Source: Minisyncoccota bacterium (GTDB lineage: Bacteria > Patescibacteriota > Minisyncoccia > Phycocordibacterales > UBA1550). Taken from it: a stretch of 64,000 bases of DNA. This document shows, piece by piece, positions 4,336 to 35,195 of the stretch (its first letter is position 1; each line of letters begins with the position of its first letter). The position numbers and the translations under genes are program-made. Where the stretch lies: positions 57,964-121,963 of the forward strand of contig JBAZWZ010000002.1 of the NCBI GenBank assembly GCA_041660105.1, given 5' to 3'. The notes under the pieces were generated by a model. That model saw only the letters and a program-made list of their open reading frames with translations, was not told the origin of the DNA and did no database searches.

Positions 4336-4356
4336 GGCGGGGGTTTTTCTTTTTTA
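4322..4356 (+). terminator. rho-independent terminator CCCCCGCC-aagtaa-GGCGGGGG plus T-run
   Basis: The hairpin overlaps the ClpP-like stop codon and is followed by TTTTTCTTTTTT. Confidence 0.6.
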
Positions 4357-4372
4357 TGGTAATATAAAAATA

Positions 4373-6316: not shown

Positions 6317-7147
6317 ATGGCGAAACAGCCCAAACTTAGTCCTAGGCAGATAATGTTCTTCCAGGCTCAAATTTGGGCCTTTTACGGGGTATCAGGCAGG
6401 AGGAATCTACCTTGGCGAAAGACAAAAAACCCTTACAAAATAATGGTTTCTGAAGTAATGCTTCAGCAGACGCAGGTCTCGCGCGTACTCGTAAAATATC
6501 CTGAATTTTTAAAGGCTTTTCCGACTGTTGAGACACTCGCAAAAGCACCTTTATCTCAAGTCCTCAAAGTCTGGCAGGGGATGGGGTACAACCGTCGCGC
6601 GCTCGCGCTCAAGCGTATGGCGGAAAAAATAGTTGCTGATTTCAATGGAAAAGTTCCACGAGCGCGACTCGACCTCGAATCACTTCCTGGAGTCGGCCCA
6701 TACACCGCAGGCGCCGTGCGTGCGTTTGCATTTAACGAGCCAGAAATATTTATTGAGACAAATATCCGTAGAATTTTCATTCATCATTTTTTCATAGACA
6801 AAGAGGGAATTAGCGATCGAGAAATTTATCCACTCGTCGAAACTACCCTCGACACAAACAATCCGCGCGAGTGGTACTGGGCACTTATGGACTACGGATC
6901 ACACTTACCAAAGATTGCGCGCAAAAATTCAAATACACAAAGCAAACACTATGTAAGGCAAAGCAAGTTTAAGGGTTCTCTCCGTGAGCTCCGCGGGAAA
7001 ATAATACGCGCGCTTGGAGACAAGCCGCAAACTCTTGTATCACTCAAGCGCGCATGCAACAATGACACAAGGATAAAAGAGGCACTGGACGCACTCACAA
7101 AAGATGGCCTCATCACCTATGAAAAAAGAAAATACCAACTTGCCTAA
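6317..7147 (+). CDS. HhH-GPD DNA glycosylase, MutY-like, lacking the Fe-S cluster loop
   Basis: LPWRKTKNPYKIMVSEVMLQQTQV and GVGPYTAGAV match the MutY catalytic domain. No Cys4 cluster and no NUDIX-like C-terminal domain follow. The MutY catalytic Asp position reads E (IETNI). Confidence 0.7.
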   Translation: MAKQPKLSPRQIMFFQAQIWAFYGVSGRRNLPWRKTKNPYKIMVSEVMLQQTQVSRVLVKYPEFLKAFPTVETLAKAPLSQVLKVWQGMGYNRRALALKRMAEKIVADFNGKVPRARLDLESLPGVGPYTAGAVRAFAFNEPEIFIETNIRRIFIHHFFIDKEGISDREIYPLVETTLDTNNPREWYWALMDYGSHLPKIARKNSNTQSKHYVRQSKFKGSLRELRGKIIRALGDKPQTLVSLKRACNNDTRIKEALDALTKDGLITYEKRKYQLA

Positions 7148-9223: not shown

Positions 9224-9466
9224 TTATTTTCCGAGAATTTGTGCTGTGGTAGTTGCTGTTGATGTAGCCGTTGAACTCGCTGACTCGAGTAAATCAATTG
9301 CGCTACCCGTCAGAAATTTAAATAATGGTAAAATATAATTTATCCAAGCTTCACTCAAAATTGCTATAATCTGTTTTACTATCGGCATTTGAGCCACCGC
9401 ATGCAAATCTATATTAAAATATGCGAGCCCCGCAATGATAATAACTGCCAAAAACACGATCTGCAT
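9224..9466 (-). CDS. small membrane protein (about 80 aa)
   Basis: MQIVFLAVIIIAGLAYF... has a TM helix, and AGGAGGG lies just upstream of the ATG at 9466. The gene is flanked by copies 1 and 2 of the palindromic element. The alternative longer start (MKRK at about 9562) would translate through copy 2. Confidence 0.45.
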   Translation of the reverse strand: MQIVFLAVIIIAGLAYFNIDLHAVAQMPIVKQIIAILSEAWINYILPLFKFLTGSAIDLLESASSTATSTATTTAQILGK

Positions 9467-9586: not shown

Positions 9587-10861
9587 TTACATATAATCCA
9601 TCGGATCCAGATACGCGTTGGTTGCCGCTACGGGCATTGTGTAGGTACGGCCACCGCAAGACTTACTTGGGAGATTCTTTACTTCAACCGCTGCTGCTGC
9701 AAAAACCGTCAGGTGCAAGTGCGGACCTGTCGAATAGCCGGTGTTGCCACTGTAGCCAATAAGGTCGCTTGTGTTAACGGTCTGCCCTTTTGATACTTTT
9801 ATAAGCGAAAAGTGCGCATAGAGGCTCGCAAGTCCGTTGTTGTGCTTGATGAGCACCCATTTACCATACGAAGCACCCGCGCACGTGAGGTCTGTGTCCC
9901 CTGTGCCGATTACCGTCCCTGAGAGCATCGCCTTCACAGGAGTTCCTACCGATGCTCGAAAGTCTGTACCATTGTGCGTCCCTGATGCATACAAACGCCC
10001 TGATGAGCTCGTCTTGCCAAACTGTTGTGTGATAGTAAGCGGATTAAGTGGCGCTGCAAAAACTTTTGTACCACGTGGCGGAATCGACGTTGGATCAAGA
10101 ATGAATTTCAATGTTGATTCATACTCACGAAGTTCTTTCTCGAGCGCGTCCTTGAGCGCGAGCTTGTCTTTCAAAATCTTTTGGTACTGCGTCTCTTGAT
10201 TTTTTGTTTGCGTAAGAAGCTTCGTTGTTTGCTTTTTGTTATCAAGCGTGATTTTCTTTTGATCACTGAGGTCGCTCTGGAGGGTCAACAACTTCCCTTT
10301 TACTGTTTGTTGTTTTTTGTTTTTGTTTTCCAGATCCGCCTTCAATGACTTGATGAGCTCTACGTTTTCATTTATCGATAAGCTGAATTCACCGAGAGAC
10401 TCGATATCATTCCAAAAATCAGAAAAACTTTTGTCAGACAGGGCAACTTGGACCAAGGATAGCTTATCTCCTTCGTTTATTACCCGCAATGCTTCTTTGA
10501 GCGCTGCTATACGCCCGCTTATTTCATCTTCCTTATAGGAAATTTCTGAGCTTAACTGTCGGATAGTTAAATTTGAAGTATCAACCTTCGCTTGAGTTAC
10601 TTTTATCTGCGCTTCGAGTGCTTTCTGTGTCGTTGCGAGTGCGGCAACAGCATTGCTCAGCGTTTTTTTCTTTGTTGCAAGAGTGGTGAGGTCTCCTTGA
10701 TACTGTTTTATTTCATCTTCAAGTTTTTGTATCGCAGTATTTTGGGCGGTGATTTTTTGTTGTAACTCGTCGACTGTTTGCGCACTCGTAAGTCCACCCG
10801 TCATAAATACAATAACGCCGAGCGACAATAATATTCCAAGTTGAAAAAAATATTTTCGCAT
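9587..10861 (-). CDS. M23-family peptidase with long N-terminal coiled coil (EnvC/LytM-like)
   Basis: N-terminal signal/TM, a Q/K/L-rich coiled coil, and C-terminal GTHNGTDF...YAHFS...GNTGYSTGPHLHL M23 motifs. Confidence 0.8.
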   Translation of the reverse strand: MRKYFFQLGILLSLGVIVFMTGGLTSAQTVDELQQKITAQNTAIQKLEDEIKQYQGDLTTLATKKKTLSNAVAALATTQKALEAQIKVTQAKVDTSNLTIRQLSSEISYKEDEISGRIAALKEALRVINEGDKLSLVQVALSDKSFSDFWNDIESLGEFSLSINENVELIKSLKADLENKNKKQQTVKGKLLTLQSDLSDQKKITLDNKKQTTKLLTQTKNQETQYQKILKDKLALKDALEKELREYESTLKFILDPTSIPPRGTKVFAAPLNPLTITQQFGKTSSSGRLYASGTHNGTDFRASVGTPVKAMLSGTVIGTGDTDLTCAGASYGKWVLIKHNNGLASLYAHFSLIKVSKGQTVNTSDLIGYSGNTGYSTGPHLHLTVFAAAAVEVKNLPSKSCGGRTYTMPVAATNAYLDPMDYM

Positions 10862-10885: not shown

Positions 10886-12229
10886 CTAAGCAATGAGTAG
10901 CTTCGTTGCTTTCTCAATGCGACTTATGGTGACTTCTTTCCCCAAAATACTTGCGAGAACGAAAGGATCGGGTGATTTGTCACGACCCGAAAGAGCGTAG
11001 CGCATCGGCCAGAGGACACTCCCCCTCCCTACTTCGGTCGCATAGTCCCAGATTGCTGTTTTAATCGTCTCTGGGGTAAAAAGATTGTCATCAATATCAC
11101 CAATCAACGAAAGAACTTTCCTAAGCTTGCCCTCAGCAACAAATTTATCTTTCTCATCTTTCCACAAGAGTGCATCTACAGAATATTCTGGATCGTCAAA
11201 AAAGTATCCATACTCCCCCGCATCTGCAAGTGCGCTCACTTCTCCAAACGTCGAGATATGGTCGAGAATAACAAGTACAATTTTTGCGAGAATATTTTTA
11301 TTATTTTCTGCCTTCGCTCGTAAGTCATCAGGAAAACGCCTGAGGATTTCTGCTTCAGCATTTTCTGTAGTGAGAACCTTCATGTAGTGCTTGTTGAGCC
11401 ACTTGAGTTTATCAATATTAAAAACAGCGCCACCTTTTTGTATTTTCTCAAGCATGAAAAGTTTAATCATCTCATCAAGTGAGATTATTTCCTGATCGTT
11501 ACCCGGGTTCCAACCCATAAGCGCAACAAAGTTGAGGATTGCCTCAGGTAAATATCCTTCCTCACGATACTCAGTCACTGCGAGAGCACCATGACGCTTT
11601 GAGAGCTTCGATTTGTCGGGGGCGAGTATCATTGGCAAATGCGCATACACAGGGCGCGGTGCACCAAGAGCTTCTTGAATAAGGATTTGACGTGGCGTAT
11701 TTGAAATGCCATCGTCTCCGCGAATGATGTGAGTTACCCCCATTTCGAAATCGTCGACAACCACCGCGAAGTGATAGAGTGGGGACTCGAGATCTTTTGC
11801 AATAACAAAATCACCAAGCTCGGTGGTATCAAAGGAAATATCTCCACGAGCCTCGTCACGAAACGTGACAACACCATTGGGATTCTTGAAGCGAATTACT
11901 TCTGTGCGGTCCCCCGGTTCCTTCGGTTCCTCTTTTGAAACATACGCTGTGCCGTCGGCAATAAGTTTAATGAGATGTTTTTTATATATTTCTCCACGTT
12001 CAGACTGACGATAAAATTCATCATTTGTAAGTCCAAGCCACGCAAGCCCATCGAGGATATTATCTTCAAATTCTCTCTTCGAGCGTTCCTTGTCAGTATC
12101 CTCAATACGCAAAATAAATTTACCACCATTTTGACGAGCAAAAAGCCACGAGTAAAGTGCAGTGCGCACGGACCCAATATGAAGCACCCCTGTTGGTGAT
12201 GGCGCAAATCTTGTTATAACGTTTGTCAT
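10886..12229 (-). CDS. gltX: glutamyl-tRNA synthetase
   Basis: RFAPSPTGVLHIGSVRTALYSWLFAR...LRIEDTD (HIGH region) and KLSKR (KMSKS). Confidence 0.9.
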   Translation of the reverse strand: MTNVITRFAPSPTGVLHIGSVRTALYSWLFARQNGGKFILRIEDTDKERSKREFEDNILDGLAWLGLTNDEFYRQSERGEIYKKHLIKLIADGTAYVSKEEPKEPGDRTEVIRFKNPNGVVTFRDEARGDISFDTTELGDFVIAKDLESPLYHFAVVVDDFEMGVTHIIRGDDGISNTPRQILIQEALGAPRPVYAHLPMILAPDKSKLSKRHGALAVTEYREEGYLPEAILNFVALMGWNPGNDQEIISLDEMIKLFMLEKIQKGGAVFNIDKLKWLNKHYMKVLTTENAEAEILRRFPDDLRAKAENNKNILAKIVLVILDHISTFGEVSALADAGEYGYFFDDPEYSVDALLWKDEKDKFVAEGKLRKVLSLIGDIDDNLFTPETIKTAIWDYATEVGRGSVLWPMRYALSGRDKSPDPFVLASILGKEVTISRIEKATKLLIA

Positions 12230-20693: not shown

Positions 20694-22355
20694 CTACCCC
20701 TTCGCTTGAAGCTCCACAAAGAACGTCGAGCCTTGTCCTTCCCCTTTTGACTCTGCCCATATACGCCCTCCGTGCTTCTTGATGACCTCGCCTGCAACAT
20801 AGAGCCCCAGCCCCGTACCCTCGGTGTACACCTTGCTCACCCCCTCAGCACGACTAAACTTCTTAAAAATCTTATCTTTTGTCGTATCGCTCATCCCAAT
20901 CCCCGTGTCCGAGATACTAAATAATACTTTTTTATTATCTGGGCTTTTTGAGAGCAAGATCGATACTTCACCCTTTGGTGTGTACTTGACTGCATTATCG
21001 ATAAGGTTTGAAGCAACTTGGCGCAATTTGCCCTCATCACCCACTATGACGAATGAAATATCCTGAATGATACCCTCATCTATAATTACACTAAGCGCAA
21101 GGTGCGCGCGGTCTGCTGATTGTTTCATCTCCTCCGACAATTCAAGCACGAGCTTCTTCATATCAACATCAGCAAATTGATAGTTCATATCTCCACTTTC
21201 AATGCGCGCAACATCCATAAAGTCCGACACCATTAAAAGCAGACGCTCACTTGAATCAAAGATTTTTCCAATAGCATCTTTCACGTTCTCTGGTAATTCC
21301 CCAAGTGAGCCTTCCATAAGCATTGATGCGTAACCTTTGATGGTCGTAAGTGGGTCACGCAGATGGTGAGATGCAATGGACAAAAACTCAGACTTCTTTT
21401 TGTCGAGAACTTTTAGCTGCTCCGTAAGAAAATCTATTTCGAATAATAGGCGTGTAATCTTGTCCTTGGACTGGATCTCCCTTTTTATACTTCCATCCAA
21501 AAATGCACAAGAAAAAATGATGAGTACCGTGATTCCTGTTTTGACAATCAAATCAATTGTTGAGCTCGCAAAAAATATTTCAACAATCATCGTAATTATA
21601 ATGATCGATGTAAAGAACTCAGTAAGAATTATTTTAATATTCCAAAAATTATATTTTGCAAGAATGAAGGCGATGGCAAATATAAACAAAATGACAGCAA
21701 TATGCCCTCCCCAAAACAGGTCTGAACCCCAAATCAAAAAGGGCGAGAAAAGGGACATAGCAAGCGCCGTCAGACAAGTTAAAGCAAGGGATATAATTAA
21801 TCCCCGAATTGCTACCTTATAAATACCCGCGCTTGTGCGATATTTATTAACCAACAAAACACCACAGGCAACAAGAAACGCCACTATGTACAATGCGTAC
21901 AACCAAAAACCCTTCCCAAATACAATCACGTTTTTCTCTTCTCCTGTGTGCAGTTGGTGACCAACAATAAAATCAGGTGCTCCAACAAGAATTGTTAAAA
22001 TTAGCAAAAAAGGAACAAACAGAGCAAACAGATTCCAGACTGAATTCTTCTTTTTTTCTGTTGAAAATGTATAAAAGAACAAAAAAAGAAAAACGGGGAC
22101 CGTCGCAGCTGCTGAATAAAGCACCATTATCCCAACTTCGGCGTATGCCCCCCTAAATGCACCGTCGAAAAATGCATAGGAAAGTCCCCACAAAAAAACA
22201 ATTACCCCTAAAAAAAGAAATGCCAAACCACTTCGCCTTGTAATATCCTGCAAATAAACGATTCCGGTCATAACCAGTGCAAGTAGACTTCCTCCGACAA
22301 CAATCCAACCGATTGTCGAGATGTTATTAATAATGGAAATGACAATTGCAGACAT
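20694..22355 (-). CDS. sensor histidine kinase with N-terminal multi-TM (7TM-type) domain
   Basis: H-box ASHHLRDPLTTIKGYASML and G2 box GTGLGLYVAGEVIKKHGGRIWAESKGEGQGSTFFVEL. About 7 N-terminal TM helices. Confidence 0.8.
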   Translation of the reverse strand: MSAIVISIINNISTIGWIVVGGSLLALVMTGIVYLQDITRRSGLAFLFLGVIVFLWGLSYAFFDGAFRGAYAEVGIMVLYSAAATVPVFLFLFFYTFSTEKKKNSVWNLFALFVPFLLILTILVGAPDFIVGHQLHTGEEKNVIVFGKGFWLYALYIVAFLVACGVLLVNKYRTSAGIYKVAIRGLIISLALTCLTALAMSLFSPFLIWGSDLFWGGHIAVILFIFAIAFILAKYNFWNIKIILTEFFTSIIIITMIVEIFFASSTIDLIVKTGITVLIIFSCAFLDGSIKREIQSKDKITRLLFEIDFLTEQLKVLDKKKSEFLSIASHHLRDPLTTIKGYASMLMEGSLGELPENVKDAIGKIFDSSERLLLMVSDFMDVARIESGDMNYQFADVDMKKLVLELSEEMKQSADRAHLALSVIIDEGIIQDISFVIVGDEGKLRQVASNLIDNAVKYTPKGEVSILLSKSPDNKKVLFSISDTGIGMSDTTKDKIFKKFSRAEGVSKVYTEGTGLGLYVAGEVIKKHGGRIWAESKGEGQGSTFFVELQAKG

Positions 22356-22363
22356 ATAAATAA

Positions 22364-24019
22364 TTATACACTAATTTCCACTCCCCCTTGCGGTGCGGGT
22401 GGCAACTCAACAATGACCGTAGTCCCTTGCCCAACACCAGCAGACTTAATATGGATAGACCCTTGTTGTGCTTCGATTATTTCTTGCGCGATATACAACC
22501 CAAACCCGTGAGTGCGCTCTTGTTTTTCTGATACAGAGTTTGTACTTTCAGTCCCATCATCAATCATAGCTGTTTTTGAATTATAGGTATCAAAAATGTG
22601 CGATATTTGACTCTTAGTCATCCCTGGACCAGTATCAGAAACCGAAAGACGTACCCTGTTTGTAACTTGATCATATGCAATTACAACACTCACCAACCCA
22701 GGACCGACTGAGTATCTAATCGCATTATCCAGAATCTGTCGCACTGCCTGCTTCAATTTATACTCGTCAATCATAACAAAATATTCTCCCGTACTCTCAG
22801 GTGAGAACGACATAATTATTTTCGCTTCATCGGCATCTTTTTTCAGCTCCGCAAGCACCTCTTTAATAAATAATTTGAAGTTTACCTTTCTAAAATCAAT
22901 CGTTGTCCTCCCCTGCTCAATGCGCGAAACGGTCAAAAGGTCTTCTACAAGTGAGGCAACATTCACTGTTGATTCATATAGTTTTTCTATTGCCTTGCGG
23001 GCGGTCTCATTGATGGGTCCAAAGGTTCCTTCTAGTACCATTGATGCATACCCCTTAATAATGGTAAGTGGTGTGCGAAGCTGATGAGAAGCAATCGATA
23101 CGAATTCTGTCTTTTGAGTTTCCATCGCTCGAAGTTTTTCATTGGCTCGCGCCCTCTCCCACGCAAGCTCTTCAATCCTCTCACGGTCGCGGATTTCGCC
23201 ATAAATACCCCGTACAAGAAAGAAACTGAATGCAACAACAGAGAGAGCAACGGAGATATTGAGCACATAGTCAAGCTTTGTATGTGAGGTAAATATATTG
23301 ATAAACAAAAATAGGTTTAGCAAAAAAACCGCAAGCTCGACAAGAATGAGTTTGATGTCAAATAATTGATGCTTAATAATAGCGTAAGAAATGATTAGAG
23401 GATAGAGAAGCACTGTCATGTTCATAAACGGATATATATCAACCCCGTACACAGGAAAGAAGTTAAATCCTCCACCAGCAAAACTTACTGCCATTCCAAA
23501 AAAGAACAATTTGATCCTATCCTTAGTTAACCTATCGTTGGTCTCATTATACCCGCGCCACAAAAGAAAATGACTATACGCAGTCAGCCCAAAGAACATT
23601 ACTGTATAAAACGGATAAAGAAGACCAGGAGGAGAGTCAAAGTAAAACTCATTAAACACGAAGCGCATGTTGTCTATAAAAAGTCCCCCCGCAAAATCTG
23701 CAACTAGAAATATGCCAGAAATAATATAGAAAAATGTGAGAAGTTTTACATTCTTTTTCCCCAAAAACTCATACACGAAGTGCAAAAATAATACAGGTAT
23801 CATAATCGCACCAACATGAGCAAGCTTCCAAGAAAACGAGGCTTCTTCAGGAGTCAGTGCTCCCCCAACAAAATAAACGCCAAGCCCAAAAAGAAAGACT
23901 GCAAAACAAAAAACCGCCCAAAGATAATGTAGTTTATTTTTGCCAATGAGCAGCATCAGAGCTGTCATCAGTCCGCTCGTGATGGCAGTAAGAAGACCTG
24001 ATAAACTATAGATAGTCAT
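22364..24019 (-). CDS. sensor histidine kinase with N-terminal multi-TM (7TM-type) domain (paralog)
   Basis: ASHQLRTPLTIIKGYASM and GFGLYIAQEIIEAQQGSIHIKSAGVGQGTTVIVEL. Same architecture as the neighbouring kinase. Confidence 0.8.
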   Translation of the reverse strand: MTIYSLSGLLTAITSGLMTALMLLIGKNKLHYLWAVFCFAVFLFGLGVYFVGGALTPEEASFSWKLAHVGAIMIPVLFLHFVYEFLGKKNVKLLTFFYIISGIFLVADFAGGLFIDNMRFVFNEFYFDSPPGLLYPFYTVMFFGLTAYSHFLLWRGYNETNDRLTKDRIKLFFFGMAVSFAGGGFNFFPVYGVDIYPFMNMTVLLYPLIISYAIIKHQLFDIKLILVELAVFLLNLFLFINIFTSHTKLDYVLNISVALSVVAFSFFLVRGIYGEIRDRERIEELAWERARANEKLRAMETQKTEFVSIASHQLRTPLTIIKGYASMVLEGTFGPINETARKAIEKLYESTVNVASLVEDLLTVSRIEQGRTTIDFRKVNFKLFIKEVLAELKKDADEAKIIMSFSPESTGEYFVMIDEYKLKQAVRQILDNAIRYSVGPGLVSVVIAYDQVTNRVRLSVSDTGPGMTKSQISHIFDTYNSKTAMIDDGTESTNSVSEKQERTHGFGLYIAQEIIEAQQGSIHIKSAGVGQGTTVIVELPPAPQGGVEISV

Positions 24020-28520: not shown

Positions 28521-29147
28521 TTACTCCGTCGGATGCCCGAACGCCTTCACCTTTGCGGGACGGATCACCTTGTTGTGCAAACGATATCCTTTTTGGATTA
28601 CTTCCGCCACGGTGTCTGCTTCTTTCTCTGACGGCGTCGGGATCTCCTCTATTGCAACGTGTAGTCGCGGATCAAACGCTTCCCCCACCTTGCCTATCTC
28701 CGTGAGACCACGGGACTCGAGAATAGAATACATTTGAGCGTAAATATATTCAACCCCCTTACGCCAGTTGGCATCTACCTTCTCCCATGCTTCTTTGTTG
28801 CCAAAGGCCATCGCGAACGAATCGAGCACAGGGATGAGGTCATCTACGAGCCCTTCGGCGGCAAACTTGATCATCTCACCGCGTCTCGTCTCCTCTTCCT
28901 TGCGGGCGTTTGCGAAGTCTGCGCGCATCCTCTGCCACCCATCGAGATAATCCTTTTTCTCCTTCTCGCAGGTCTTGAGCTTTTCGCGAAGCTTCTTCAA
29001 AGATTGAGCAGGATTCTCCATTTCTTCGTCATCCTCATATTGGAGGTCATCACTATACACAGCGTTTTCTTTTGTGTCAAGTGCCTCATTTCCTGCCTCC
29101 AAATCCCCTATTTTCTTATCTTTTTCTTCGTTTTCGTTGTTTGTCAT
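28521..29147 (-). CDS. grpE: nucleotide exchange factor GrpE
   Basis: Acidic N-terminus, a coiled coil and a C-terminal ...GWQRMRADFANARKEEETRR GrpE core. Confidence 0.9.
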   Translation of the reverse strand: MTNNENEEKDKKIGDLEAGNEALDTKENAVYSDDLQYEDDEEMENPAQSLKKLREKLKTCEKEKKDYLDGWQRMRADFANARKEEETRRGEMIKFAAEGLVDDLIPVLDSFAMAFGNKEAWEKVDANWRKGVEYIYAQMYSILESRGLTEIGKVGEAFDPRLHVAIEEIPTPSEKEADTVAEVIQKGYRLHNKVIRPAKVKAFGHPTE

Positions 29148-29257: not shown

Positions 29258-29812
29258 TTAGGAGCCTTTTTCTTTTCTACTGGTGCGGGCAATATATGTC
29301 TTTATATTTTCCAGATTATCGTAATATTCCGACCCAATTCTCTTATACAATGACGAAGCTCGTTTTTTGTCGGGAAACAATATCTTCTTAAACCTTTTTT
29401 CCTCAATGAGAAAATCAACTATGGCTTTATAATCGCCATCCCCAGACACTAAAATTACATCCTGGAAATCTTCTTTTCGATATAATCTTTTCATTATCGA
29501 AAAAATAATATCAGAATCAACATTTCCCTTTTTGCCACTTATCAATGCTTCGCTGTGTTGTCTAAACTTTAGAATAAAGCCAGAACTTTGAATATATTCA
29601 TAAATCTCTTGCGCCCTTTCTGTGTCTTGAATATATCCAAGGTGATAGAACGCCACTTTAACATTATATTTGTCGGCAAGATAAACCCGAAATCTCTTTA
29701 GGTCAATCTTCCACGGATCGACTTCCCTCTTCGCTGTCCCCATGTGCAAATTCTGCCCATCGATGAATGCATAATTTTTGAGTTCTTTGTTCATGGTTTC
29801 AATTCCTAACAT
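29258..29812 (-). CDS. NYN-domain (LabA-like PIN-fold) putative nuclease
   Basis: AFIDGQNL...VDSDI...VSGDGDY acidic residue pattern of NYN domains. Start uncertain (29812 or 29794). Confidence 0.7.
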   Translation of the reverse strand: MLGIETMNKELKNYAFIDGQNLHMGTAKREVDPWKIDLKRFRVYLADKYNVKVAFYHLGYIQDTERAQEIYEYIQSSGFILKFRQHSEALISGKKGNVDSDIIFSIMKRLYRKEDFQDVILVSGDGDYKAIVDFLIEEKRFKKILFPDKKRASSLYKRIGSEYYDNLENIKTYIARTSRKEKGS

Positions 29813-29825
29813 TATCCCACCATTA

Positions 29826-29910
29826 CACATTAAAAGAAAGAGTGGATTGCAATGCAATCCACTCTTTCTTAATTTTGTCTCTACCAATGGAGTTTGAAAA
29901 TCAAAGGTAC
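29826..29910. repeat. 85-bp hairpin repeat, copy 1 (AAGAAAGAGTGGATTGCA / TGCAATCCACTCTTTCTT stem + conserved 45-bp tail)
   Basis: Near-identical to 31064-31148, with compensatory loop changes that preserve the stem. It lies just 3' of the Fic gene. Confidence 0.6.
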
Positions 29911-29948
29911 CTGACCGCTTATTCTTGAGAGTCCGTGGCGAATATTGA

Positions 29949-31010
29949 TTAAATCCTTACATACCTCGTTCCCCTGCCACGGCCGATACGCTTTACTTTT
30001 CCAAGCTCGACGAGACGCTCGAGGGATTTTCTTACGGTCGCGGTAACCATACCAGTTGCACTCGCAATTTCCGCAGGGCTCGCCTCGTGGACTGACGCAA
30101 AGAATTGTAGAACCTCGCTTTGTTTTGGTGATAGGCCTTCCTCGTGTTCCCTTTCCACAAGCGCTAGCGCTCTCACTGCCTGTTCCTTTACGATAGACAA
30201 AAAGAAATTAAGCCAAGGCACGATTGAACTATTTTCCGTCTTAAATGTTTTCTGTGCTTCACGCAGAGCAAGATAGTATTCATCTTTACGTTTCTCGACG
30301 AGTTGCTCGTGCGAGACGTATTGCACAAATGTATAACCAGAGCGAAGGAGAAGCATATTGGTGAGCACACGTGAAAGGCGCCCATTACCATCTTCAAATG
30401 GGTGAATCTTCAAAAACTCTATAAGGAAATTTGCAATAATGAGGAGTGGATGAAAGCGCTTCTTCTCAAGAGCTTCATGTGTCCACAGGACGAGCTCGGT
30501 CATTTCTGCGGGTGTCTGCCATGCGGGGGTTGTTTCGAACACAATACGTACGACTTTGCCGTCTTCGCCGAGCACTCCAACTACATTTTCTTTCTTTTTG
30601 TATTCACCCCTGTGTAGGTCGTCTTTGGTTGAATATTTGAGAAGTTCTTTGTGAAGCGATTGAATAGTACTTTCACGAAGTGCCAGTGTTTGAAAACTAT
30701 CAAAAACATTTTGCAGTGTTTCGAGGTAGCCTTGTACTTCCTGGGAATCGCGGTCTGCGAATTTAGTAATTGAAAGCCCCTGCATTATCTTTTTCACTTC
30801 CTCGTCAGAAAGTTTTGATCCTTCGATACGAGTCGATGCACCTGCTGATGTCACGAGAACCGACTTTCGAAGATTGGTAATTGCCTGTGGCGTCATACGA
30901 ACACCAACACGGAAAACACCACGGGCCTCGTCTATCGCTGCCAAAAGAGCCACAATATGAGGCTCGGGGGTGTTTATTCGGTGGTCAAATTTTCGTGCGT
31001 TATCGTCCAT
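29949..31010 (-). CDS. Fic-family protein (putative AMPylase) with C-terminal wHTH
   Basis: Canonical HPFEDGNGRLSRVL Fic motif. An N-terminal STRIEG (S/T-x-x-x-E-G/N) inhibitory-helix motif suggests class II. Confidence 0.85.
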   Translation of the reverse strand: MDDNARKFDHRINTPEPHIVALLAAIDEARGVFRVGVRMTPQAITNLRKSVLVTSAGASTRIEGSKLSDEEVKKIMQGLSITKFADRDSQEVQGYLETLQNVFDSFQTLALRESTIQSLHKELLKYSTKDDLHRGEYKKKENVVGVLGEDGKVVRIVFETTPAWQTPAEMTELVLWTHEALEKKRFHPLLIIANFLIEFLKIHPFEDGNGRLSRVLTNMLLLRSGYTFVQYVSHEQLVEKRKDEYYLALREAQKTFKTENSSIVPWLNFFLSIVKEQAVRALALVEREHEEGLSPKQSEVLQFFASVHEASPAEIASATGMVTATVRKSLERLVELGKVKRIGRGRGTRYVRI

Positions 31011-31063
31011 ATTTAGTGATACTATCTAACATATGAGATTTTATCACATTTTATTAGATAAAG

Positions 31064-31148
31064 CAAAGAGTGGATTGTCGAAGACAATCCACTCTTTCTT
31101 AATTTTGTCTCTACCAATAGAGTTTGAAAATCAAAGGTACCTGACCGC
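31064..31148. repeat. 85-bp hairpin repeat, copy 2
   Basis: Direct repeat of 29826-29910, upstream of the Fic start. Confidence 0.6.
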
Positions 31149-31254
31149 AATATTCTAGGTATCTACTCATACGGACGATAGTACTGTATAAGTAGATACC
31201 TGGTGCACAAAGCTGGATTTCCTTCACTTTTTTCCGTAGTTCCCTAGTATATAC

Positions 31255-31300
31255 AAAATTTTAGAGATGTGGATTTCAAAAGGGTGCCCAATCCCCTTTC
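31255..31300 (+). repeat. 40-bp direct repeat, copy 1 (AAAATTTTAGAGATGTGGATTTCAAAAGGGTGCCC...)
   Basis: Repeated at 32095-32134 and includes an AAAGGG...CCCTTT hairpin. It lies 50 nt upstream of a 240-aa ORF. Confidence 0.55.
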
Positions 31301-31347: not shown

Positions 31348-32070
31348 ATGGCAGGAAGAAAAGAAAAATCTGTTTCTGGTTCAGACCTAGCACATCCTCA
31401 TGATGTCGGTGTTACTGTGACATTTAATCAGATAGTCATTCATCCAACTTACGGCACAATACTGCTACCTGTTTATGATCACACAGACTTTTACTTTAAG
31501 TCTGCCGAATCTGCTCTGATCGAAGCCAAAAAATATCATGAAAAAATACTATCCAGCCCCGTTAATAAATCAAATTGTCGAGTCGTTTATTCAGAAAGTA
31601 CAGACTTGCCTGCATTTTTTATGTTTTCACAAAATGTCGTTATATATTCATATTTAGCTCTTGAGTACTTTGCTATAAGTTGTGCTCAATCAGTTAATAA
31701 GGTTAAGGAGTGGGAAAAGAGAAGACTAGACCAAAAATTAAAATATCTTATACAACAGGAACTTGGTATCCCTCATCTTTCTCCTGATCTTTGTAGTGCG
31801 TTTGGTGAACTTGAAAATAGAAGACACTCTTTGAACCATCCGACTATAAAGAACATAACTAATGGTCACCCTACAGAATGGGATTCTGCACATCTTGCCT
31901 GGTTAATGGTTGGGAACTATGAAAAAGTATATTTATCTGCTAAGAAAATTTATGAGGAAATTCGTAAACCTCTAATAGAATACAATAAGAAAAAACCTCA
32001 GGGTGAAGTTACTCTCACTGGAGTTAAAAGAGGTATTAAGTTTGAAAACCCAGCCAAGAAATCTTTATGA
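31348..32070 (+). CDS. hypothetical protein (240 aa), no recognisable domain
   Basis: Clean ORF on the strand opposite its neighbours, flanked on both sides by the 40-bp direct repeat. Confidence 0.6.
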   Translation: MAGRKEKSVSGSDLAHPHDVGVTVTFNQIVIHPTYGTILLPVYDHTDFYFKSAESALIEAKKYHEKILSSPVNKSNCRVVYSESTDLPAFFMFSQNVVIYSYLALEYFAISCAQSVNKVKEWEKRRLDQKLKYLIQQELGIPHLSPDLCSAFGELENRRHSLNHPTIKNITNGHPTEWDSAHLAWLMVGNYEKVYLSAKKIYEEIRKPLIEYNKKKPQGEVTLTGVKRGIKFENPAKKSL

Positions 32071-32094
32071 AACAATGGTGTTACCACTTCACGC

Positions 32095-32134
32095 AAAATT
32101 TTAGAGATGTAAATTTCAAAAGGGTACCCCCTTT
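32095..32134 (+). repeat. 40-bp direct repeat, copy 2 (AAAATTTTAGAGATGTAAATTTCAAAAGGGTACCCCCTTT)
   Basis: Lies between the convergent 240-aa ORF and the protease gene. Contains the AAAGGGTACCCCCTTT hairpin. Confidence 0.55.
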
Positions 32135-32141
32135 ATCAAAC

Positions 32142-33518
32142 CTATTCACAAAAATATGACCCACCAGAAGTCTCAAGCTCCTTTTCTTTTGAGACTGTTA
32201 TTACTATTAAATCTTTCGCTAATTTAGTGTATTTTTCCTCTTCCTCCTGTAACGATTTTAAATAGATATCTGAAGCACTGGACTCCAAACCCTCCACGAA
32301 TTTAAGTGTACTTTCTGCTTCTTTTATTCTATAACCAATTGCTTCCTTTCGTAATTTTACGACATCACTCATGACACCAGCAATAGATGAGGGTATATTA
32401 TTTGGTATGAGACTAGGCAGACTATCAAATGTTTTGCTTGCTATCTTAAAATTAGTAAGTGCATTTTCTAGGTCAGTATGTGCACCATCAATATCAATGT
32501 CTCCTATCTTCTTATACACGAAAAGTCCATTTATTATTCCTTTATTCATGCTGTCTGAACCCCTGCTCAAGGTTGAAATAAAAGACAGATAATTTTGTTT
32601 TTGATTCTCGGTATAAGTACAACTGCTCGAATACGCCGTCGTCGAACCTGGGAGGATCGTATTTTTGCCTTGTTTCAAATACGGGAGCCATGTTTTTACG
32701 ATATCAACCGGAATAGCAAATTTGATTGTTTCTCCCAAAATGACACCCTCAATCTGTTTGCTACTATAAATTGCAGTATTAATACCTACCACCTGACCAT
32801 AACGGTTTATTAAAGGTCCACCACTATTCCCTGGGTGAATTTCAGCAGAAGTTTCAAGGTAATTTTCAATTCGTCGTGAAATCGTCCCTTCCTTGAAACT
32901 CACATCTCCTTCAAGTCCAAATGGAAATCCGAAAGTAAAAACATTTTCTCCTTGAGGAAGCGACTCTTCATCAGAATTTCCAAATTTAATTATCGACAAA
33001 CCATTTTTATTTACTTTCAATAGAGCCAGATCATGAAGTTCATCCCTGCCAACAACAGTTGCTAAGGCGTAATCACTATTACTAAAAGTAACATCAGCTC
33101 TGTTGACCCCACTAATAACATGGGCGTTCGTTAAAATATATCCATTGGGCTCTATTACAAAACCACTACCACTTCCTTCAGATGTTTTTATGTAAACTAC
33201 CGCAGGCTTTACCTTTTTAATTAAATCCGTATTACCCAAAACACCAGTTGACGTTGTAGTAACTTCTTTTTTTACGGAAGGAGCATTCGTATTAGATGAA
33301 TGTTGCCCCTTTTTAAGTTCATCAACTTCTTGGCGTAGTTTTTCAATTTCCGAAAGTTGGGGGGTTGTGCTCGCTTGCTTGTCGCTCTTGGAAGGATTTT
33401 CTGCTTGGTGGATTTGATATTGTACTACTCCAAAATATCCGCCACCCCCTAAAACCAAAACGCTCGCAACAGCCACGAGAAGTATTGGTATTGGGATAAA
33501 TCCTCCTTGATTTTTCAT
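32142..33518 (-). CDS. membrane-anchored trypsin-like (S1) serine protease with uncharacterised C-terminal domain
   Basis: N-terminal TM. GSGFVI...TNAHVI (His), DLALLK (Asp) and GNSGGPL (Ser) motifs. No obvious PDZ, and about 190 aa of unknown C-terminal sequence. Confidence 0.75.
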   Translation of the reverse strand: MKNQGGFIPIPILLVAVASVLVLGGGGYFGVVQYQIHQAENPSKSDKQASTTPQLSEIEKLRQEVDELKKGQHSSNTNAPSVKKEVTTTSTGVLGNTDLIKKVKPAVVYIKTSEGSGSGFVIEPNGYILTNAHVISGVNRADVTFSNSDYALATVVGRDELHDLALLKVNKNGLSIIKFGNSDEESLPQGENVFTFGFPFGLEGDVSFKEGTISRRIENYLETSAEIHPGNSGGPLINRYGQVVGINTAIYSSKQIEGVILGETIKFAIPVDIVKTWLPYLKQGKNTILPGSTTAYSSSCTYTENQKQNYLSFISTLSRGSDSMNKGIINGLFVYKKIGDIDIDGAHTDLENALTNFKIASKTFDSLPSLIPNNIPSSIAGVMSDVVKLRKEAIGYRIKEAESTLKFVEGLESSASDIYLKSLQEEEEKYTKLAKDLIVITVSKEKELETSGGSYFCE

Positions 33519-33540
33519 TTAAATTATTATCCCACAAATA

Positions 33541-33600
33541 CACATTAAAAGAAAGAATTGGACTGACTGCTGAAGACAGTCCGTCCAGTTCCTTCTTTTA
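33541..33600. repeat. hairpin element related to the 85-bp repeat (CACATTAAAAGAAAGA... nested stems)
   Basis: Shares the CACATTAAAAGAAAGA lead and a long imperfect stem. It lies upstream of the protease gene start. Confidence 0.4.
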
Positions 33601-33709
33601 TCATTATCCAATTGTGTATAGAAATTATAGGCACTTGTACACCTCCTTAATTTACTTTTGTAGTAATATACTATGGTAAATTACTACAAAAAAGAATAGA
33701 CTTTAGATT

Positions 33710-34540
33710 ATGGACCCAAATACCTATAAATTTCTCTACGACTGGCAGCAATTAATCGGTGCGTTTCTTGGACCATTTCTTGCAATTATTTTTTCTTCAT
33801 TAAGTTTTTATATTACGTGGTTAATTGGGAAATGGAGAAGATACAGAGAAACATTTCGAAAAATTGAGGTTCACACTACATACGCAATGAATAGCACGGT
33901 CTCAATGCAGGATAAACTTACAAGCTTTGTTAATCAAGCAAAAAAACTAGTAGCTGACATCAGGGGGATAACTAATCCAAATGAATTTGCTCTTCATACC
34001 ATTAATTTCCCCGCATTGGGTGAAATCCACCTTTTTTCAGAGGCGCCAGATATTGGAGTTAGAAGTTACTTTTTACACAACAAGCTTCTCTGGGCGCACT
34101 CAAGCACAAAAGATCTTAATTCAATACTGGGAACATTTTCAGACGGTTGGTCTCATATAATTAATTTAAATAATCGCCTCATCGACCTTACAAAAGACAC
34201 ACCAAATCCAACATTTCAAAGAGGACAATATGCAGAAAATATAGAAATTTTTTGTAAAGAAATTGAGAGGTTTTCTAATGATGACTTATCAAAAAACTTG
34301 ATAACACTTTCTCAAATAAAAATATACAACGAGATGCTGAGGCAGTCATATTTTGTCGGTAGCTATAATTTATGGAAGAATGAAGGCCTGAGTTTCAAGT
34401 ATTTTCGTACTTACTCAGAACATAAAGCATTTTCAAGAAACCTCGAAAGTATTGAAAGGATTGAGGGAATCATCCAAGACGAAACTACTAAACTTTTATC
34501 GGAAATTGAAGAAAGGCACAAAAAAATCAACAATATATAA
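33710..34540 (+). CDS. hypothetical membrane-anchored protein (276 aa)
   Basis: N-terminal TM helix (LIGAFLGPFLAIIFSSLSFYITWLIG) and a soluble remainder with no recognisable family. Confidence 0.5.
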   Translation: MDPNTYKFLYDWQQLIGAFLGPFLAIIFSSLSFYITWLIGKWRRYRETFRKIEVHTTYAMNSTVSMQDKLTSFVNQAKKLVADIRGITNPNEFALHTINFPALGEIHLFSEAPDIGVRSYFLHNKLLWAHSSTKDLNSILGTFSDGWSHIINLNNRLIDLTKDTPNPTFQRGQYAENIEIFCKEIERFSNDDLSKNLITLSQIKIYNEMLRQSYFVGSYNLWKNEGLSFKYFRTYSEHKAFSRNLESIERIEGIIQDETTKLLSEIEERHKKINNI

Positions 34541-34650
34541 AACATAGAACTGCAACCAGCAACCCTGCATTTTTTTAAATCTCCAAAAAACGTTCAAATA
34601 TTGAGATGCTTACGCTCTAAGGTTTATCTCGAGATGAATACGAGGCACGG

Positions 34651-34706
34651 AAAAAGCGCCCGCGGAAGGTGTACAAGTAGTACTCCGACCAAGGGCGCTT
34701 TTTTCG
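34651..34706. terminator. bidirectional terminator AAAAGCGCCC...GGGCGCTTTTTT
   Basis: GC stem flanked by an A-run and a T-run, between convergent rpsI and the hypothetical plus-strand gene. Confidence 0.6.
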
Positions 34707-34727
34707 TAACGAAGTAGTCGCTCGAGA

Positions 34728-35195
34728 TTAACGCTTAGACCATTGTGGGGCCTTTCTAGCCTTCTTAAGCCCAAACTTCCTTCTCTCCTTCATTCTAGGA
34801 TCACGCTTGAGGAAGCCGAGCTTCTTGAGACGCTTGCGAGTCTCTTCGTCGTACTTCACGATTGCGCGTGAGAGTCCGTGGCGAAGTGCCTCTGCTTGTG
34901 AGTGGATACCACCTCCTACTACCTTTACGGTAACGATGAACTTGCCGGCTACCTTCGACTTCTCGAGAGCTTCTGCAACAATGTGCTGGAGCTCTGCTGT
35001 GGGGAAGTACTCAGTAACGGTCTTGTCGTTGATGGTTACACCCTCCTTGGTGCCCTCGGTAATACGTACACGAGCTGATGAAGTCTTACGACGACCAACT
35101 GCCTCGATGTAACGAGCGGCTGTCTTCACTACCTTTGGAGCCTTTACAGCTACACTTTCTTCTCCTACTGCTTTTGTTGTATCTTTGGTCGTCAT
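34728..35195 (-). CDS. rpsI: 30S ribosomal protein S9
   Basis: ...GGGIHSQAEALRHGLSRAIV...KKARKAPQWSKR C-terminus. Confidence 0.9.
   Translation of the reverse strand: MTTKDTTKAVGEESVAVKAPKVVKTAARYIEAVGRRKTSSARVRITEGTKEGVTINDKTVTEYFPTAELQHIVAEALEKSKVAGKFIVTVKVVGGGIHSQAEALRHGLSRAIVKYDEETRKRLKKLGFLKRDPRMKERRKFGLKKARKAPQWSKR

Follow-up and report, generated by a model that had tools for sequence, protein, structure and literature searches.

The segment between rpsI and grpE in an uncultured bacterium of Candidatus Yonathbacteria (Paceibacterota, CPR) raises the question of how a single Fic gene came to lie between two near-identical repeats, each containing a long perfect hairpin, and of what these repeats are. 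Judging from sequence, the bracketing hairpin repeats are two copies of the local transcription terminator and the island is not an integron; the reading that we favour, at about even confidence, is that the Fic unit was inserted beside the terminator upstream of a NYN gene in an insertion with long target duplication, within a defence hotspot flanked by core genes. The features of the region are listed by their positions in the window, that is, the whole 64-kb stretch of DNA analysed.

28521-29147, minus strand: grpE, the hotspot border lying downstream in the direction of transcription (Pfam GrpE, E = 6.4e-43), syntenic in 80 related loci.
29258-29794, minus strand: NYN/LabA-like gene (Pfam NYN, E = 3.6e-15; GC 0.358).
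29795-29833, minus strand: putative promoter and RBS part of the linker, TTTTAATGTGTAATGGTGGGATAATGTTAGGA, with the extended -10 box TGGGATAAT.
29834-29870, minus strand: hairpin copy 1, followed by a T-tract and terminator-like on both strands.
29871-29918, minus strand: tail copy 1, 48 nt, starting on the minus strand with GCGGTCAGGTACCTTTGA.
29926-29942, minus strand: 17-nt filler separating the Fic stop codon from tail copy 1, identical to positions 34869-34885 in the genome's own rpsI.
29949-31010, minus strand: Fic gene, 353 aa, class II and SoFic-like, with inhibitory motif, Fic core and predicted C-terminal winged helix.
31011-31064, minus strand: putative Fic promoter and leader, GCTTTATCTAATAAAATGTGATAAAATCTCATATGTTAGATAGTATCACTAAAT, which travels with the open reading frame.
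31065-31097, minus strand: hairpin copy 2, 15 perfect pairs, with the minus-strand apex GTCTTCGAC.
31098-31148, minus strand: tail copy 2, comprising the 48-nt tail (31101-31148) and 3 nt of stem-base homology (31098-31100).
31157-31201, no strand assigned: inverted repeat forming an extra 16-bp hairpin immediately upstream of tail copy 2.
31254-31289, minus strand: D2a, one copy of a 36-nt direct repeat around orf240.
31348-32070, plus strand: orf240, a rare orphan gene oriented opposite to Fic and a second single-gene insertion.
32094-32129, minus strand: D2b, the second copy of the 36-nt repeat.
32142-33518, minus strand: HtrA/DegP-like serine protease gene (Pfam Trypsin_2, E = 4.4e-33; NCBIfam Do-family protease).
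33519-33640, minus strand: third, diverged linker, with putative promoter (33519-33545), hairpin (33546-33600) and tail-like part (33601-33640).
33710-34540, plus strand: orf276, without family matches.
34590-34727, minus strand: conserved long hairpin element immediately following the rpsI stop codon, with 37 predicted pairs, 15 of them with compensatory changes.
34728-35195, minus strand: rpsI, the upstream hotspot border (Pfam Ribosomal_S9, E = 2.1e-40).

The near-identical elements that a preliminary description had placed around Fic are real, and occupy about 90 nt each on either side of the gene (29831-29918 and 31059-31148). They share a 64-nt direct repeat (29855-29918 and 31085-31148) of 98% identity with one SNP (29889 G versus 31119 A), and with gaps allowed the two copies remain similar over 93-97 nt (AGAATA to CTCTTT). 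There are exactly two occurrences of the 21-mer CTTAATTTTGTCTCTACCAAT in the 64 kb, and it appeared in none of 100 shuffles. The repeat period is 1230 nt, and Fic with its promoter is all that the approximately 1.14 kb between the copies contains. The three flanked genes share the minus strand, so that the order in the direction of transcription is tail, hairpin, T-tract, extended -10 promoter, and gene. The conserved tail reported earlier is present, although it is 48 nt rather than 45 bp long. Tail copy 2 matches positions 9310-9373 of the closest relative, L002, at 63/64 nt, compared with only 84-86% identity in the backbone (binomial P about 4e-4).

Hairpin copy 1 was delimited by a repeat finder as 18-nt perfect arms (29834-29851 and 29853-29870) with a 1-nt spacer, and by folding and a terminator scan as 17 pairs with a 3-nt loop; fold z-scores of the hairpin copies are -4.5 to -5.8. 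The two copies differ only in the hairpin apex (GCAATGC in copy 1, GTCGAAGAC in copy 2), the stem base of copy 2 (GC for GA, 31063-31064), and the single SNP. These changes had been described as compensatory and taken to indicate selection on structure; the stems are indeed intact, but two copies alone are insufficient for that conclusion, which was overstated. Long perfect palindromes can also correct themselves by arm-to-arm templating. One hairpin copy in L002 resembles a loop inversion of window copy 2. The third hairpin that had been noted before the protease gene (33541-33600) is likewise genuine (z = -6 to -7); its linker shares a 31-nt promoter segment with copy 1 (33526-33556 versus 29811-29841, 94%) and has weak tail homology (nhmmer E = 0.014, model positions 8-90). 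The promoter part of the linker is identical across four L002 copies and has two mismatches to the copy at 33526-33550; its function as a promoter is suggested by consensus. Candidate boxes for transcription start are TGGGATAAT and TGTGATAAAAT.

The identity of the hairpin emerges from relatives without an island, in which the rpsI-grpE gap is only about 90 nt and consists of one hairpin, AAGAAAGAG...CTCTTTCTT, and an extended -10 promoter, TGTGATAAT. By homology, the window hairpin descends from this ancestral rpsI terminator, a point that the earlier description overlooked. Each of the orthologous and paralogous hairpins (14/14) folds as a 15-21 bp stem followed by a T-tract despite sequence change, as judged by folding each sequence separately, because indels shift the stems out of register in alignment-based covariation; the retention of stem and T-tract gives the family the look of a terminator under selection. 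Both window copies were reported as predicted terminators by the terminator scan, with hairpin copy 1 located 78 nt past the Fic stop codon, and we infer that the hairpins terminate transcription and that the -10 boxes drive each gene. The alternative that the element is simply a terminator used widely in the species does not hold, as it is confined to the island in the 64-kb window and in 20 kb of L002, where it separates genes different from those in the window. Outside the islands, pattern, fuzzy, and nhmmer searches for such a generic terminator detected no additional copy, either in the window or across 1.59 Mb of related loci.

Several other readings of the repeat were considered and rejected. 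DNA folding of the tail as the other half of a larger palindrome gave only short, inconsistent extensions (CCATT/AATGG, ACA/TGT), and reading it by eye as an HrcA/CIRCE or HAIR heat-shock operator gave no match. ARAGORN found no tRNA in the window, and nothing reached Rfam gathering thresholds, with the hairpins giving only sub-threshold noise of miRNA and L20-leader type.

The two core genes border a variable island that is absent from most relatives, where rpsI abuts grpE, as comparison of the syntenic region established. Among 78 related loci, most gaps are 60-250 nt, and about 25 (about a third) contain 0.5-8.7 kb of cargo, including an EcoRI-like methyltransferase with GmrSD/HNH, a type ISP/IIG restriction-modification gene, RhuM, zeta toxin, and Fic, together with predicted toxin-antitoxin-like pairs. 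The flanking genes are thus fixed and conserved and the content is variable and rich in defence genes, as in defence hotspots flanked by core genes. Among the relatives examined, those with an island have the long hairpin element after rpsI (L006 among them, with a nested insertion), and those without an island lack it. In L002, whose GrpE is 93% identical, the tail-hairpin-promoter linker lies between unrelated small membrane-protein genes, and two full and three internally deleted linkers, the full ones 1356 nt apart, occur within one 2.4-kb array; pure tandem duplication of paralogues was discarded as an explanation of this array, only two of its four genes being recognisably related. The gene next to Fic in the window had been called a NYN gene, an assignment with which its Pfam match agrees; it is annotated at NCBI with a 184-aa product (ATG at 29812), and a homologue (86%) lies directly upstream of grpE in L091, where only the tail motif is present. 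The other neighbour of Fic, orf240, has only nine relatives among 5.8 billion proteins.

The Fic protein passes the Pfam Fic cut-off (E = 1.5e-17) and contains both motifs that had been read from the sequence, HPFEDGNGR (from residue 203) and the N-terminal inhibitory motif S59-xxx-E63-G64, while its C terminus has sub-threshold matches to winged-helix families, e.g. MarR_2 (Pfam). It matches PADLOC SoFic over residues 47-351 (E = 2.4e-44) and PDB 8uqu (E = 1.9e-32), and scores 43.7 bits against the NCBIfam SoFic equivalog NF046030 (cut-off 550), so that it is not an equivalog of the Shewanella SoFic. Its predicted architecture is that of SoFic, and it belongs to a distant subfamily.

The view that Fic is a mobile insertion is borne out by its recurrence as a single-gene unit in unrelated CPR contexts. 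The GC content of the gene is 0.462, compared with 0.34-0.38 (about 0.35) elsewhere in the island, and the unit of promoter and open reading frame is 1.13 kb. Fic was found in about nine other unrelated CPR contexts; homologues with 79-92% identity follow gyrA, fusA or VKOR, lie next to a sulfate transporter or a type III restriction-modification system, or precede a giant helicase, and a partial copy with 83% identity is present on an IMG/VR contig. A 60-nt promoter with a sharp 5' boundary is common to the homologues across about ten unrelated contexts. Two further relatives, L009 and L005, also have Fic integrated at the rpsI-grpE hotspot, and the junction between hairpin and Fic promoter is the same there as in the window. 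At the other end of the gene, the 17-nt filler is an exact copy of the genome's own rpsI; where the rpsI of a relative shows any match, at least 1 nt is different, and the longest match in 300 shuffles was 14 nt. The Fic 3' junction is thus illegitimate and templated.

Long repeats on both sides of a gene are rare and are restricted to inserted or variable genes. In a control covering all fetched DNA, seven of 937 genes have long flank-to-flank repeats; all seven are in insertion contexts or variably present, and every one of their repeats contains a terminator hairpin or borders on one. The rpsI-grpE interval accounts for four of these genes, and a fifth follows immediately downstream of grpE. 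The repeats are 93-97 nt around Fic in the window, 72 nt around Fic in L090, where they correspond to the fusA 3' end, 36 nt around orf240 in the window, and 46 nt around its homologue in L109/L110. For orf240, L002 provides the empty site, with a single D2 copy and matching right flank. The linker itself occurs in L002 in single copies, but ahead of genes other than NYN, and look-ups of exact proteins and of the contexts of NYN and orf240 homologues gave no genome with the exact Fic empty site (orf240-side flank, one linker, NYN), so that a single copy at the uninterrupted site is only indirectly supported for Fic.

In naturally competent bacteria, restriction-modification genes are known to enter genomes by insertion with long target duplication (Nobusato et al. 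2000, cited as reference 37 in Furuta, Abe & Kobayashi 2010, NAR, PMC2853133). The Fic insertion has the corresponding anatomy, namely an inserted segment below 20 kb without a mobility gene (here only Fic and its promoter) and flanking repeats above 30 bp that are unique to the site (here 93-97 nt, found only in the island). The linker consists, in the direction of transcription, of the conserved 48-nt tail, a hairpin of Rho-independent type that goes back to the ancestral rpsI terminator, and a putative extended -10 promoter, and Fic is an autonomous 1.13-kb promoter-plus-ORF unit that moves between CPR genomes without a recombinase of its own. We propose that the unit entered next to the terminator upstream of NYN, with about 95 nt of target (tail and hairpin) being duplicated on both sides, probably in the insertion event itself. 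A plausible route would be a break at the palindromic terminator and recombination or repair after uptake of foreign DNA, and natural competence as well as homologous-recombination genes have been reported for Patescibacteria (PMC12455944). Several such insertions at one terminator would yield the observed array of genes separated by linker copies.

Some observations do not sit easily with this proposal. The differences between the copies are clustered at the apex, with only one SNP elsewhere, which argues against a simple recent duplication. The junction of hairpin 2 with the Fic promoter is common to L009 and L005, so that Fic may have brought along all of hairpin copy 2 or only its 3' arm. 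The two repeat copies in L090 differ solely by synonymous third-position changes, a pattern that favours two alleles brought together by homologous recombination over a de novo duplication with later decay. Finally, several full linkers coexist in the lineage, as L002 demonstrates, and Fic could therefore have replaced a gene between two linkers that were already there.

This last alternative is possible, if less likely than the preferred reading. It holds that Fic arrived with its own upstream hairpin from an L009-like donor and replaced a gene between two array linkers, by one crossover in about 35 nt of hairpin homology and one illegitimate join at the Fic 3' end, so that the direct repeats would be recombination substrates and not products of the insertion. 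[quoted passage not shown] (PMC2853133). On the other hand, both window copies carry the AGAATA extension past the boundary of the L002 module, L002 has a single D2 copy for orf240, and four independent cases (Fic twice, orf240 twice) and three more inserted genes are each flanked by different local repeats, a coincidence that is hard to accept.

The likeness to attC sites and integron cassettes suggested in the preliminary description failed on inspection: the stems are perfect over 15-17 bp and lack extrahelical bases and RYYYAAC/GTTRRRY core sites, and no integrase was found among the ORFs scanned in the window. By reading, no conserved GTTRRRY/RYYYAAC was seen at the element ends, the nearest, GTTAGGA, failing at the last position and being ATTAGGA in L002. 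Pfam scans of ORFs of at least 150 aa in the 64-kb window, covering all except seven that overlap annotated genes in another frame, gave no integrase, resolvase, or transposase domain and only housekeeping genes. An extended -10 box precedes each gene, and orf240 and orf276 are on the opposite strand, an arrangement different from that of promoterless cassettes in one orientation.

A more general form of this idea, a site-specific cassette platform in which the linker with its GGTCAGGTACC motif is an att-type site for a recombinase encoded elsewhere, is very improbable. One linker type does separate unrelated cargo in two genomes, its tail is conserved far beyond the backbone, and in five genomes recombination breakpoints fall at the 5' motif, among them the truncation of hicB in L009 and, in L005, a MITE-like insert with a 10-nt duplication around it. 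Against it stand the lack of integrase, transposase, or HUH domains in the ORFs scanned and of attC R''/R' core sites, genes seemingly with their own promoters and in both orientations, the absence of the motif from the roughly nine other Fic contexts, the ancestry of the hairpin as the rpsI terminator, and the unrelated sequences of the repeats around the other inserted genes. The related proposition that GGTCAGGTACC, at the start of every unit and at breakpoints in five Yonathbacteria genomes, is a dedicated recombination site for an enzyme acting in trans is also very improbable; were it true, the island would be an integrase-independent or novel-recombinase platform for gene capture in CPR bacteria, in which cassettes bring or receive their own terminator and promoter.

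More improbable still is a reading of the tail-hairpin element as itself mobile, a short repeat of the MITE, REP, or Correia kind that spread between genes and landed on both sides of Fic by chance. The element is compact, contains a palindrome, is intergenic and is highly conserved between two genomes, and the "short" L002 linkers, which lack about 66 nt, could be empty sites; with the hairpin orthologous to the resident terminator, these are better read as deletions. Full copies are confined to the island (two and one diverged in the window, two in L002), unlike a dispersed repeat, and the other approximately 58 kb of the window and 1.59 Mb of related loci contained none. No related copy came from the metagenome and viral scans either: the tail pattern had one chance match in the former, inside an oligoendopeptidase gene, and a 16-mer had seven in the latter, none with extended similarity. 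The element also lacks its own terminal inverted repeats and target-site duplications.

An assembly artefact, in which Fic on a separate 1.23-kb circle or in a strain variant was threaded into the chromosome via the common linker, is scarcely credible: Logan unitigs of the same sample do break within the repeats (L001 corresponds to window 29891-31114), one of them 2 nt from the sole tail SNP though only 29 nt are common there, which hints at sample heterogeneity, but the apex and SNP tell the copies apart, each copy is contiguous with unique Fic-side sequence in an independent assembly, the approximately 95-nt repeat is shorter than ordinary reads, and Fic is integrated at the same hotspot in L009 and L005.

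To our knowledge, the mechanism of insertion with long target duplication has stayed unexplained since its first description, and discussion of it has been almost solely concerned with restriction-modification genes. The present locus and its relatives add clean cases from CPR/Patescibacteria with other cargo: a SoFic-type Fic and a very rare orphan gene, each in two contexts, together with RhuM and two genes of unknown function. Such cargo, all of it at terminators, argues for a mechanism independent of the restriction enzyme and suggests palindromic terminators as preferred entry points. The 90-nt gap between rpsI terminator and grpE promoter is furthermore a compact and recognisable hotspot where uncultured ultra-small bacteria exchange defence and toxin genes, and could serve for mining new defence genes and for tracking gene flow in metagenomes.

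Several known systems share parts of this organization. Integron arrays (e.g. those with Vibrio VCR) similarly have unrelated genes separated by approximately 90-nt palindrome-containing repeats that are conserved within a lineage, and toxin or accessory cargo; the island differs in lacking IntI, attI, Pc, R and L boxes, and extrahelical bases, and in having cassettes seemingly with their own promoters, in mixed orientations, and a hairpin that is the resident terminator. The minimal mobile elements of Neisseria are alternative cargo between one conserved gene pair, exchanged by transformation and homologous recombination in the flanks without machinery encoded by the element. The island resembles them in its alternative cargo between fixed conserved genes; we know of no description in them of internal duplicated terminator linkers around each gene.

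With SoFic and class II Fic AMPylases (PADLOC SoFic; PDB 3EQX, 8UQU; PMC12249575), the window Fic shares HPFxDGNGR, the N-terminal S/TxxxE(G/N), the C-terminal winged helix, and a full-length match to the PADLOC model. It differs in lacking a small downstream anti-SoFic ORF, for which the 30 nt between stop codon and tail leave no room, and its AMPylation and defence roles are predictions from sequence. The P. aeruginosa cDHS (PMC10250203) and the defence islands of E. coli (PMC10121019) likewise occupy fixed sites between housekeeping genes and have variable defence and toxin content without an integrase, whereas the hotspot described here is a single 90-nt terminator-promoter gap in tiny CPR genomes, with islands of 0.5-9 kb in which internal linker repeats delimit single genes.

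The closest parallel to our preferred reading is with restriction-modification insertions with long target duplication, which, as characterised in PMC2853133, are short units without mobility genes, flanked by repeats of more than 30 bp of local target, the target often being at the 3' end of a neighbouring gene or just past it; they occur in naturally competent hosts and carry defence or toxin cargo with a GC content unlike that of the surroundings. Here the cargo is Fic and an orphan gene and not restriction-modification genes, and the explanation by double-strand breaks given by those authors is not obviously applicable. Further differences are the CPR host and the nature of the duplicated target, a terminator with a putative promoter; several rounds of insertion also seem to have built an array.

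The Fic gene lies between two copies of a 64-nt direct repeat that are 98% identical (one SNP), with similarity covering 93–97 nt once gaps are allowed, and the bracketing repeats and perfect hairpins reported in the preliminary description are thus confirmed. Its 21-mer occurs exactly twice in the 64 kb and never in shuffles. The features concerned are as follows.

29855-29918: copy 1 of the 64-nt direct repeat
29949-31010, minus strand: Fic, 353 aa
31085-31148: copy 2 of the 64-nt direct repeat
31348-32070, plus strand: orf240, an orphan gene
33541-33600: third hairpin

Each copy contains a perfect hairpin followed by a 48-nt tail on the plus strand; the hairpin has 17 pairs and a 3-nt loop in copy 1 and 15 pairs in copy 2, and differences between the copies are limited to the apex, the copy-2 stem base (GC for GA, 31063-31064), and the one SNP. 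The third hairpin belongs to the same family, as proposed earlier, as a diverged member: its region and copy 1 have a common 31-nt promoter segment with 94% identity, and the whole element aligns weakly (nhmmer E = 0.014). NYN (the gene downstream of Fic), Fic and the protease gene, all on the minus strand, are each preceded in transcription order by tail, hairpin, T-tract and extended -10 box, together referred to here as the linker, and then the start codon. No full linker copies were found outside the islands, the variable gene stretches at the rpsI–grpE junction, whether in the window or across the 1.59 Mb of related loci, and the metagenome and viral scans for the element gave chance matches only. 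On the sequence available, the element is not a widely used species terminator, the case named beforehand as refuting a cassette, and full copies are confined to islands.

The hairpin is of local origin. The GrpE search gave 80 Paceibacterota/Patescibacteria loci, the nearest named relatives being Candidatus Yonathbacteria, and the order rplM-rpsI-grpE-dnaK-dnaJ is conserved. In island-free Yonathbacteria the rpsI–grpE gap is about 90 nt and corresponds to one hairpin plus one extended -10 promoter, as in L003, where AAGAAAGAGAGAAATTATCAATGATAGTTTCTCTCTTTCTT is followed by TGTGATAATATTAGAT and the grpE ATG. The hairpin base AAGAAAGAG...CTCTTTCTT is common to the window and the island-free relatives, and all 14 orthologous or paralogous hairpins fold with 15–21 bp stems followed by T-tracts, with different upper stems. 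Because of this common base and these stems with T-tracts, the Fic-bracketing hairpin descends from the resident rpsI terminator, and a stem kept throughout the family is as would be expected of a terminator.

Comparison of the grpE–rpsI region in relatives, suggested in the preliminary description, shows that the gap between the rpsI stop and the grpE start is mostly 60–250 nt (78 loci) and spans 0.5–8.7 kb in about 25 genomes. A hotspot for accessory genes, most of them of defence type, lies in this interval.

Cargo of islands between rpsI and grpE
Window: orf276, HtrA-like protease, orf240, Fic, NYN
L009: Fic (91% amino acid identity), EcoRI-like methyltransferase, GmrSD/HNH nuclease, DUF2283, PRiA4_ORF3
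L005: Fic (68%), type ISP/IIG restriction-modification enzyme, RhuM
L006: zeta toxin
L007 and L017: short HicAB-like and RelE/ParE-like pairs (read from the sequence)

The window island is AT-rich (GC 0.34–0.38), with the exception of Fic (0.46), which is near the window mean of 0.45. Integrase, transposase and resolvase domains are absent from the scanned ORFs of at least 150 aa in the 64 kb, a set that excludes seven ORFs each overlapping an annotated gene in another frame. Elsewhere in the window, two adjacent paralogous 7TM histidine-kinase genes (20694-24019) occupy a low-GC stretch (0.39–0.40). A separate long hairpin of ~105–140 nt lies directly after the rpsI stop (window 34590-34727, minus strand; L002 6398-6537, L005 1255-1375, L007 9349-9480, L009 3173-3295, L017 9295-9415), with 37 predicted pairs and compensatory changes in 15. 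The island-bearing Yonathbacteria examined carry it (in L006 with a nested insertion) and the island-free ones lack it. Rfam gives no match, and the element may be a hotspot-linked site, a MITE or a structured RNA.

The closest relative, L002, shares the linker with the window but there it parts different genes. Its GrpE is 93% identical and its backbone 84–86% identical in nucleotide sequence, and its 3.6-kb island contains none of the window island genes, carrying one ORF of unknown function and four small membrane-protein genes. Upstream of all four is TCTTTCTTTTAATGTG(T/C)AATGGTGGGATAAT(A/G)TTAGGA, then ATG. Two L002 linkers (7954-8040, 9310-9396) have the full tail and hairpin, and the other three resemble internal deletions (GGTCAG/ATCC/TTTCTTTT). 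Conservation of the tail and outer stem greatly exceeds that of the backbone: window copy 2 matches L002 9310-9373 at 63 of 64 positions (binomial P ~4e-4 at 85% background identity).

Five genomes have the first 16 nt of the tail (GGTCAGGTACCTTTGA) at unit boundaries, twice each in the window and L002 and also at L005 9464, L009 7449 and 9510, and L091 1158. At L009 7449, homology to the intact L007 hicB ends exactly at the motif, and at L005 9464 there is a MITE-like insert flanked by a AGGTCAGGTA duplication. This inverted-repeat element (L005 9329-9475; GTCTTTGCGAGG...CCTCGCAAAGAC core) sits within the tail motif, and a related copy is located at L005 1480-1570, between hairpin and Fic. 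What follows the motif in L005, L009 and L091 is an unrelated hairpin or no hairpin. The spacing between motif and -10 box ranges over ~45–115 nt and so speaks against a simple operator; the element may be att-like, mark a fragile site, or belong to a small RNA or 3'-UTR. A reading of low probability builds on these observations, in which the motif would be a dedicated recombination site and the island a gene-capture platform. Immediately upstream of tail copy 2 is a 16-bp hairpin (AGGTATCTAC...GTAGATACCT; 31157-31201) that looks like a palindromic insert within an AGGTA|TACCT context resembling the tail-motif core AGGTACCT.

The Fic protein has the HPFEDGNGR motif at residue 203 and an S59xxxE63G64 inhibitory motif, both as first described, as is the adjoining NYN gene; winged-helix matches at its C terminus are all sub-threshold. 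It gives a full-length match to the PADLOC SoFic model (E = 2.4e-44), also matches solved Fido and SoFic structures, and falls far under the NCBIfam SoFic equivalog cut-off. SoFic is reported to be an abortive-infection AMPylase (PMC12249575). More than 7,000 relatives were found at E <= 1e-20, over 100 of them at least 72% identical along their full length. Homologues with 79–92% identity reside in unrelated contexts: after gyrA (L084), after fusA (L090), beside a sulfate transporter (L085), before a 1,600-aa helicase (L086-L089), in a tandem Fic pair (L100), before a type III restriction-modification system (L101-L104), and after VKOR (L105-L108); an IMG/VR contig (L092) carries a partial copy, 83% identical. 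The L100 pair consists of two different Fic genes (2501-3562 and 3699-4754) adjoining an AEP-helicase gene.

The 5' edge of the Fic-unit homology is sharp in every case, at TTGCTTTATCTCATAAAAGGTGATAAAATCTCATA ~60 nt before the ATG, the 3' edge is a few nucleotides from the stop codon, and the upstream junction is usually within or just past a terminator T-tract. The CTCTTT|GCTTTATCT junction of window copy 2 recurs in L009 and L005, where the unit comes immediately after the orthologous rpsI-distal hairpin; tail and downstream repeat are absent from these two genomes. Fic is an autonomous unit that travels widely. In its promoter (window 31011-31064) the -10 box is surrounded by two direct ATCTCATA repeats, and a GATA(A/G)TATCA palindrome precedes the ATG; both are kept across contexts (L009, L084-L086, L090, L100, L101, L105), and these may form an autoregulatory operator for Fic's own winged-helix domain.

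We propose that a mobile SoFic-type gene unit entered the terminator–promoter linker ahead of NYN, which would have left ~95 nt of target on both sides of it and a terminator ahead of the arriving gene as well as of the one downstream; recurrent insertions like this at a single terminator would build the observed array of genes separated by linker copies. The main alternative, judged less likely, is that several linkers pre-existed, as in L002, and that Fic replaced a gene between two of them. It draws on the hairpin-to-Fic-promoter junction common to the window, L009 and L005, on the clustering of copy 1/copy 2 differences at the apex, and on the resemblance of the copy-2 apex to L009 and L002a. 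A decisive empty-site genome for the Fic insertion was not found.

At the 3' junction, 30 nt separate the Fic stop from tail copy 1, and 17 of these (29926-29942) are identical to the genome's own rpsI (34869-34885), ~5 kb away. The longest match in 300 shuffles is 14 nt, and those rpsI genes of relatives that show any match to this filler have one or more differing bases. The filler therefore seems templated from the resident rpsI, which indicates an illegitimate join made in this lineage, probably replication- or repair-associated. We also note that L001, a Logan unitig from the same sample (window 29891-31114), begins 2 nt past the sole tail SNP, a point at which the two copies have only 29 nt in common; this may reflect heterogeneity in SRR18595301, for example a circular or tandem form or a variant produced by gene conversion.

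Comparison of the 500 nt upstream and downstream of each gene (320 nt for orf240) identified further long flanking repeats besides the 93–97 nt around Fic. In L090, Fic is flanked by a 72-nt repeat of the 3' end of fusA (4148-4220 and 5444-5516). The copies differ solely by synonymous changes at third positions, a sign of two alleles brought together by homologous recombination and not of a decaying duplicate; this also favours the replacement account. Among 5.8 billion proteins the orf240 family numbers only nine. The window's orf240 lies between two copies of the 36-nt D2 repeat (31254-31289, 32094-32129); L002 has a single D2 copy with matching right flank, which serves as an empty site. 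A 76% homologue (L109/L110) is in another context, adjoining a PLD-SNF2 helicase and an Eco57I-type methylase, and is bracketed by an unrelated 46-nt repeat (L109 2088-2133, 3034-3079).

As a control, flank-to-flank repeats were scored for 937 genes (150 aa or longer) across all DNA retrieved, and seven were positive: Fic in the window and L090, orf240 in the window and L109/L110, and three further genes in insertion contexts. These are RhuM in the L005 island (6634-6694 / 7798-7858) and an unknown gene in the L052 rpsI–grpE gap (8656-8726 / 9799-9864), both with a duplicated terminator (with promoter) segment, and, directly downstream of grpE in L061, an unknown gene (10542-10625 / 11355-11450), where the terminator and promoter following grpE are duplicated. 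All seven repeats abut or include a terminator hairpin. Long flanking repeats are rare, recurrent, and confined to inserted or variably present genes.

The substance of the earlier proposal, a potential toxin inserted like a cassette, is supported, the island being variable and the Fic unit occurring in unrelated contexts; an attC-like boundary is not supported. The locus combines a defence-gene insertion with long target duplication and a core-gene-flanked defence hotspot, both of known kinds. Insertion with long target duplication has been described for restriction-modification genes, mostly in naturally competent bacteria (PMC2853133), and competence as well as retained homologous-recombination genes are reported for Patescibacteria (PMC12455944). 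The flanking-repeat pattern here is alike, and the locus differs from the known cases in its unusual host group, its non-restriction-modification cargo, and its clear link to terminators.
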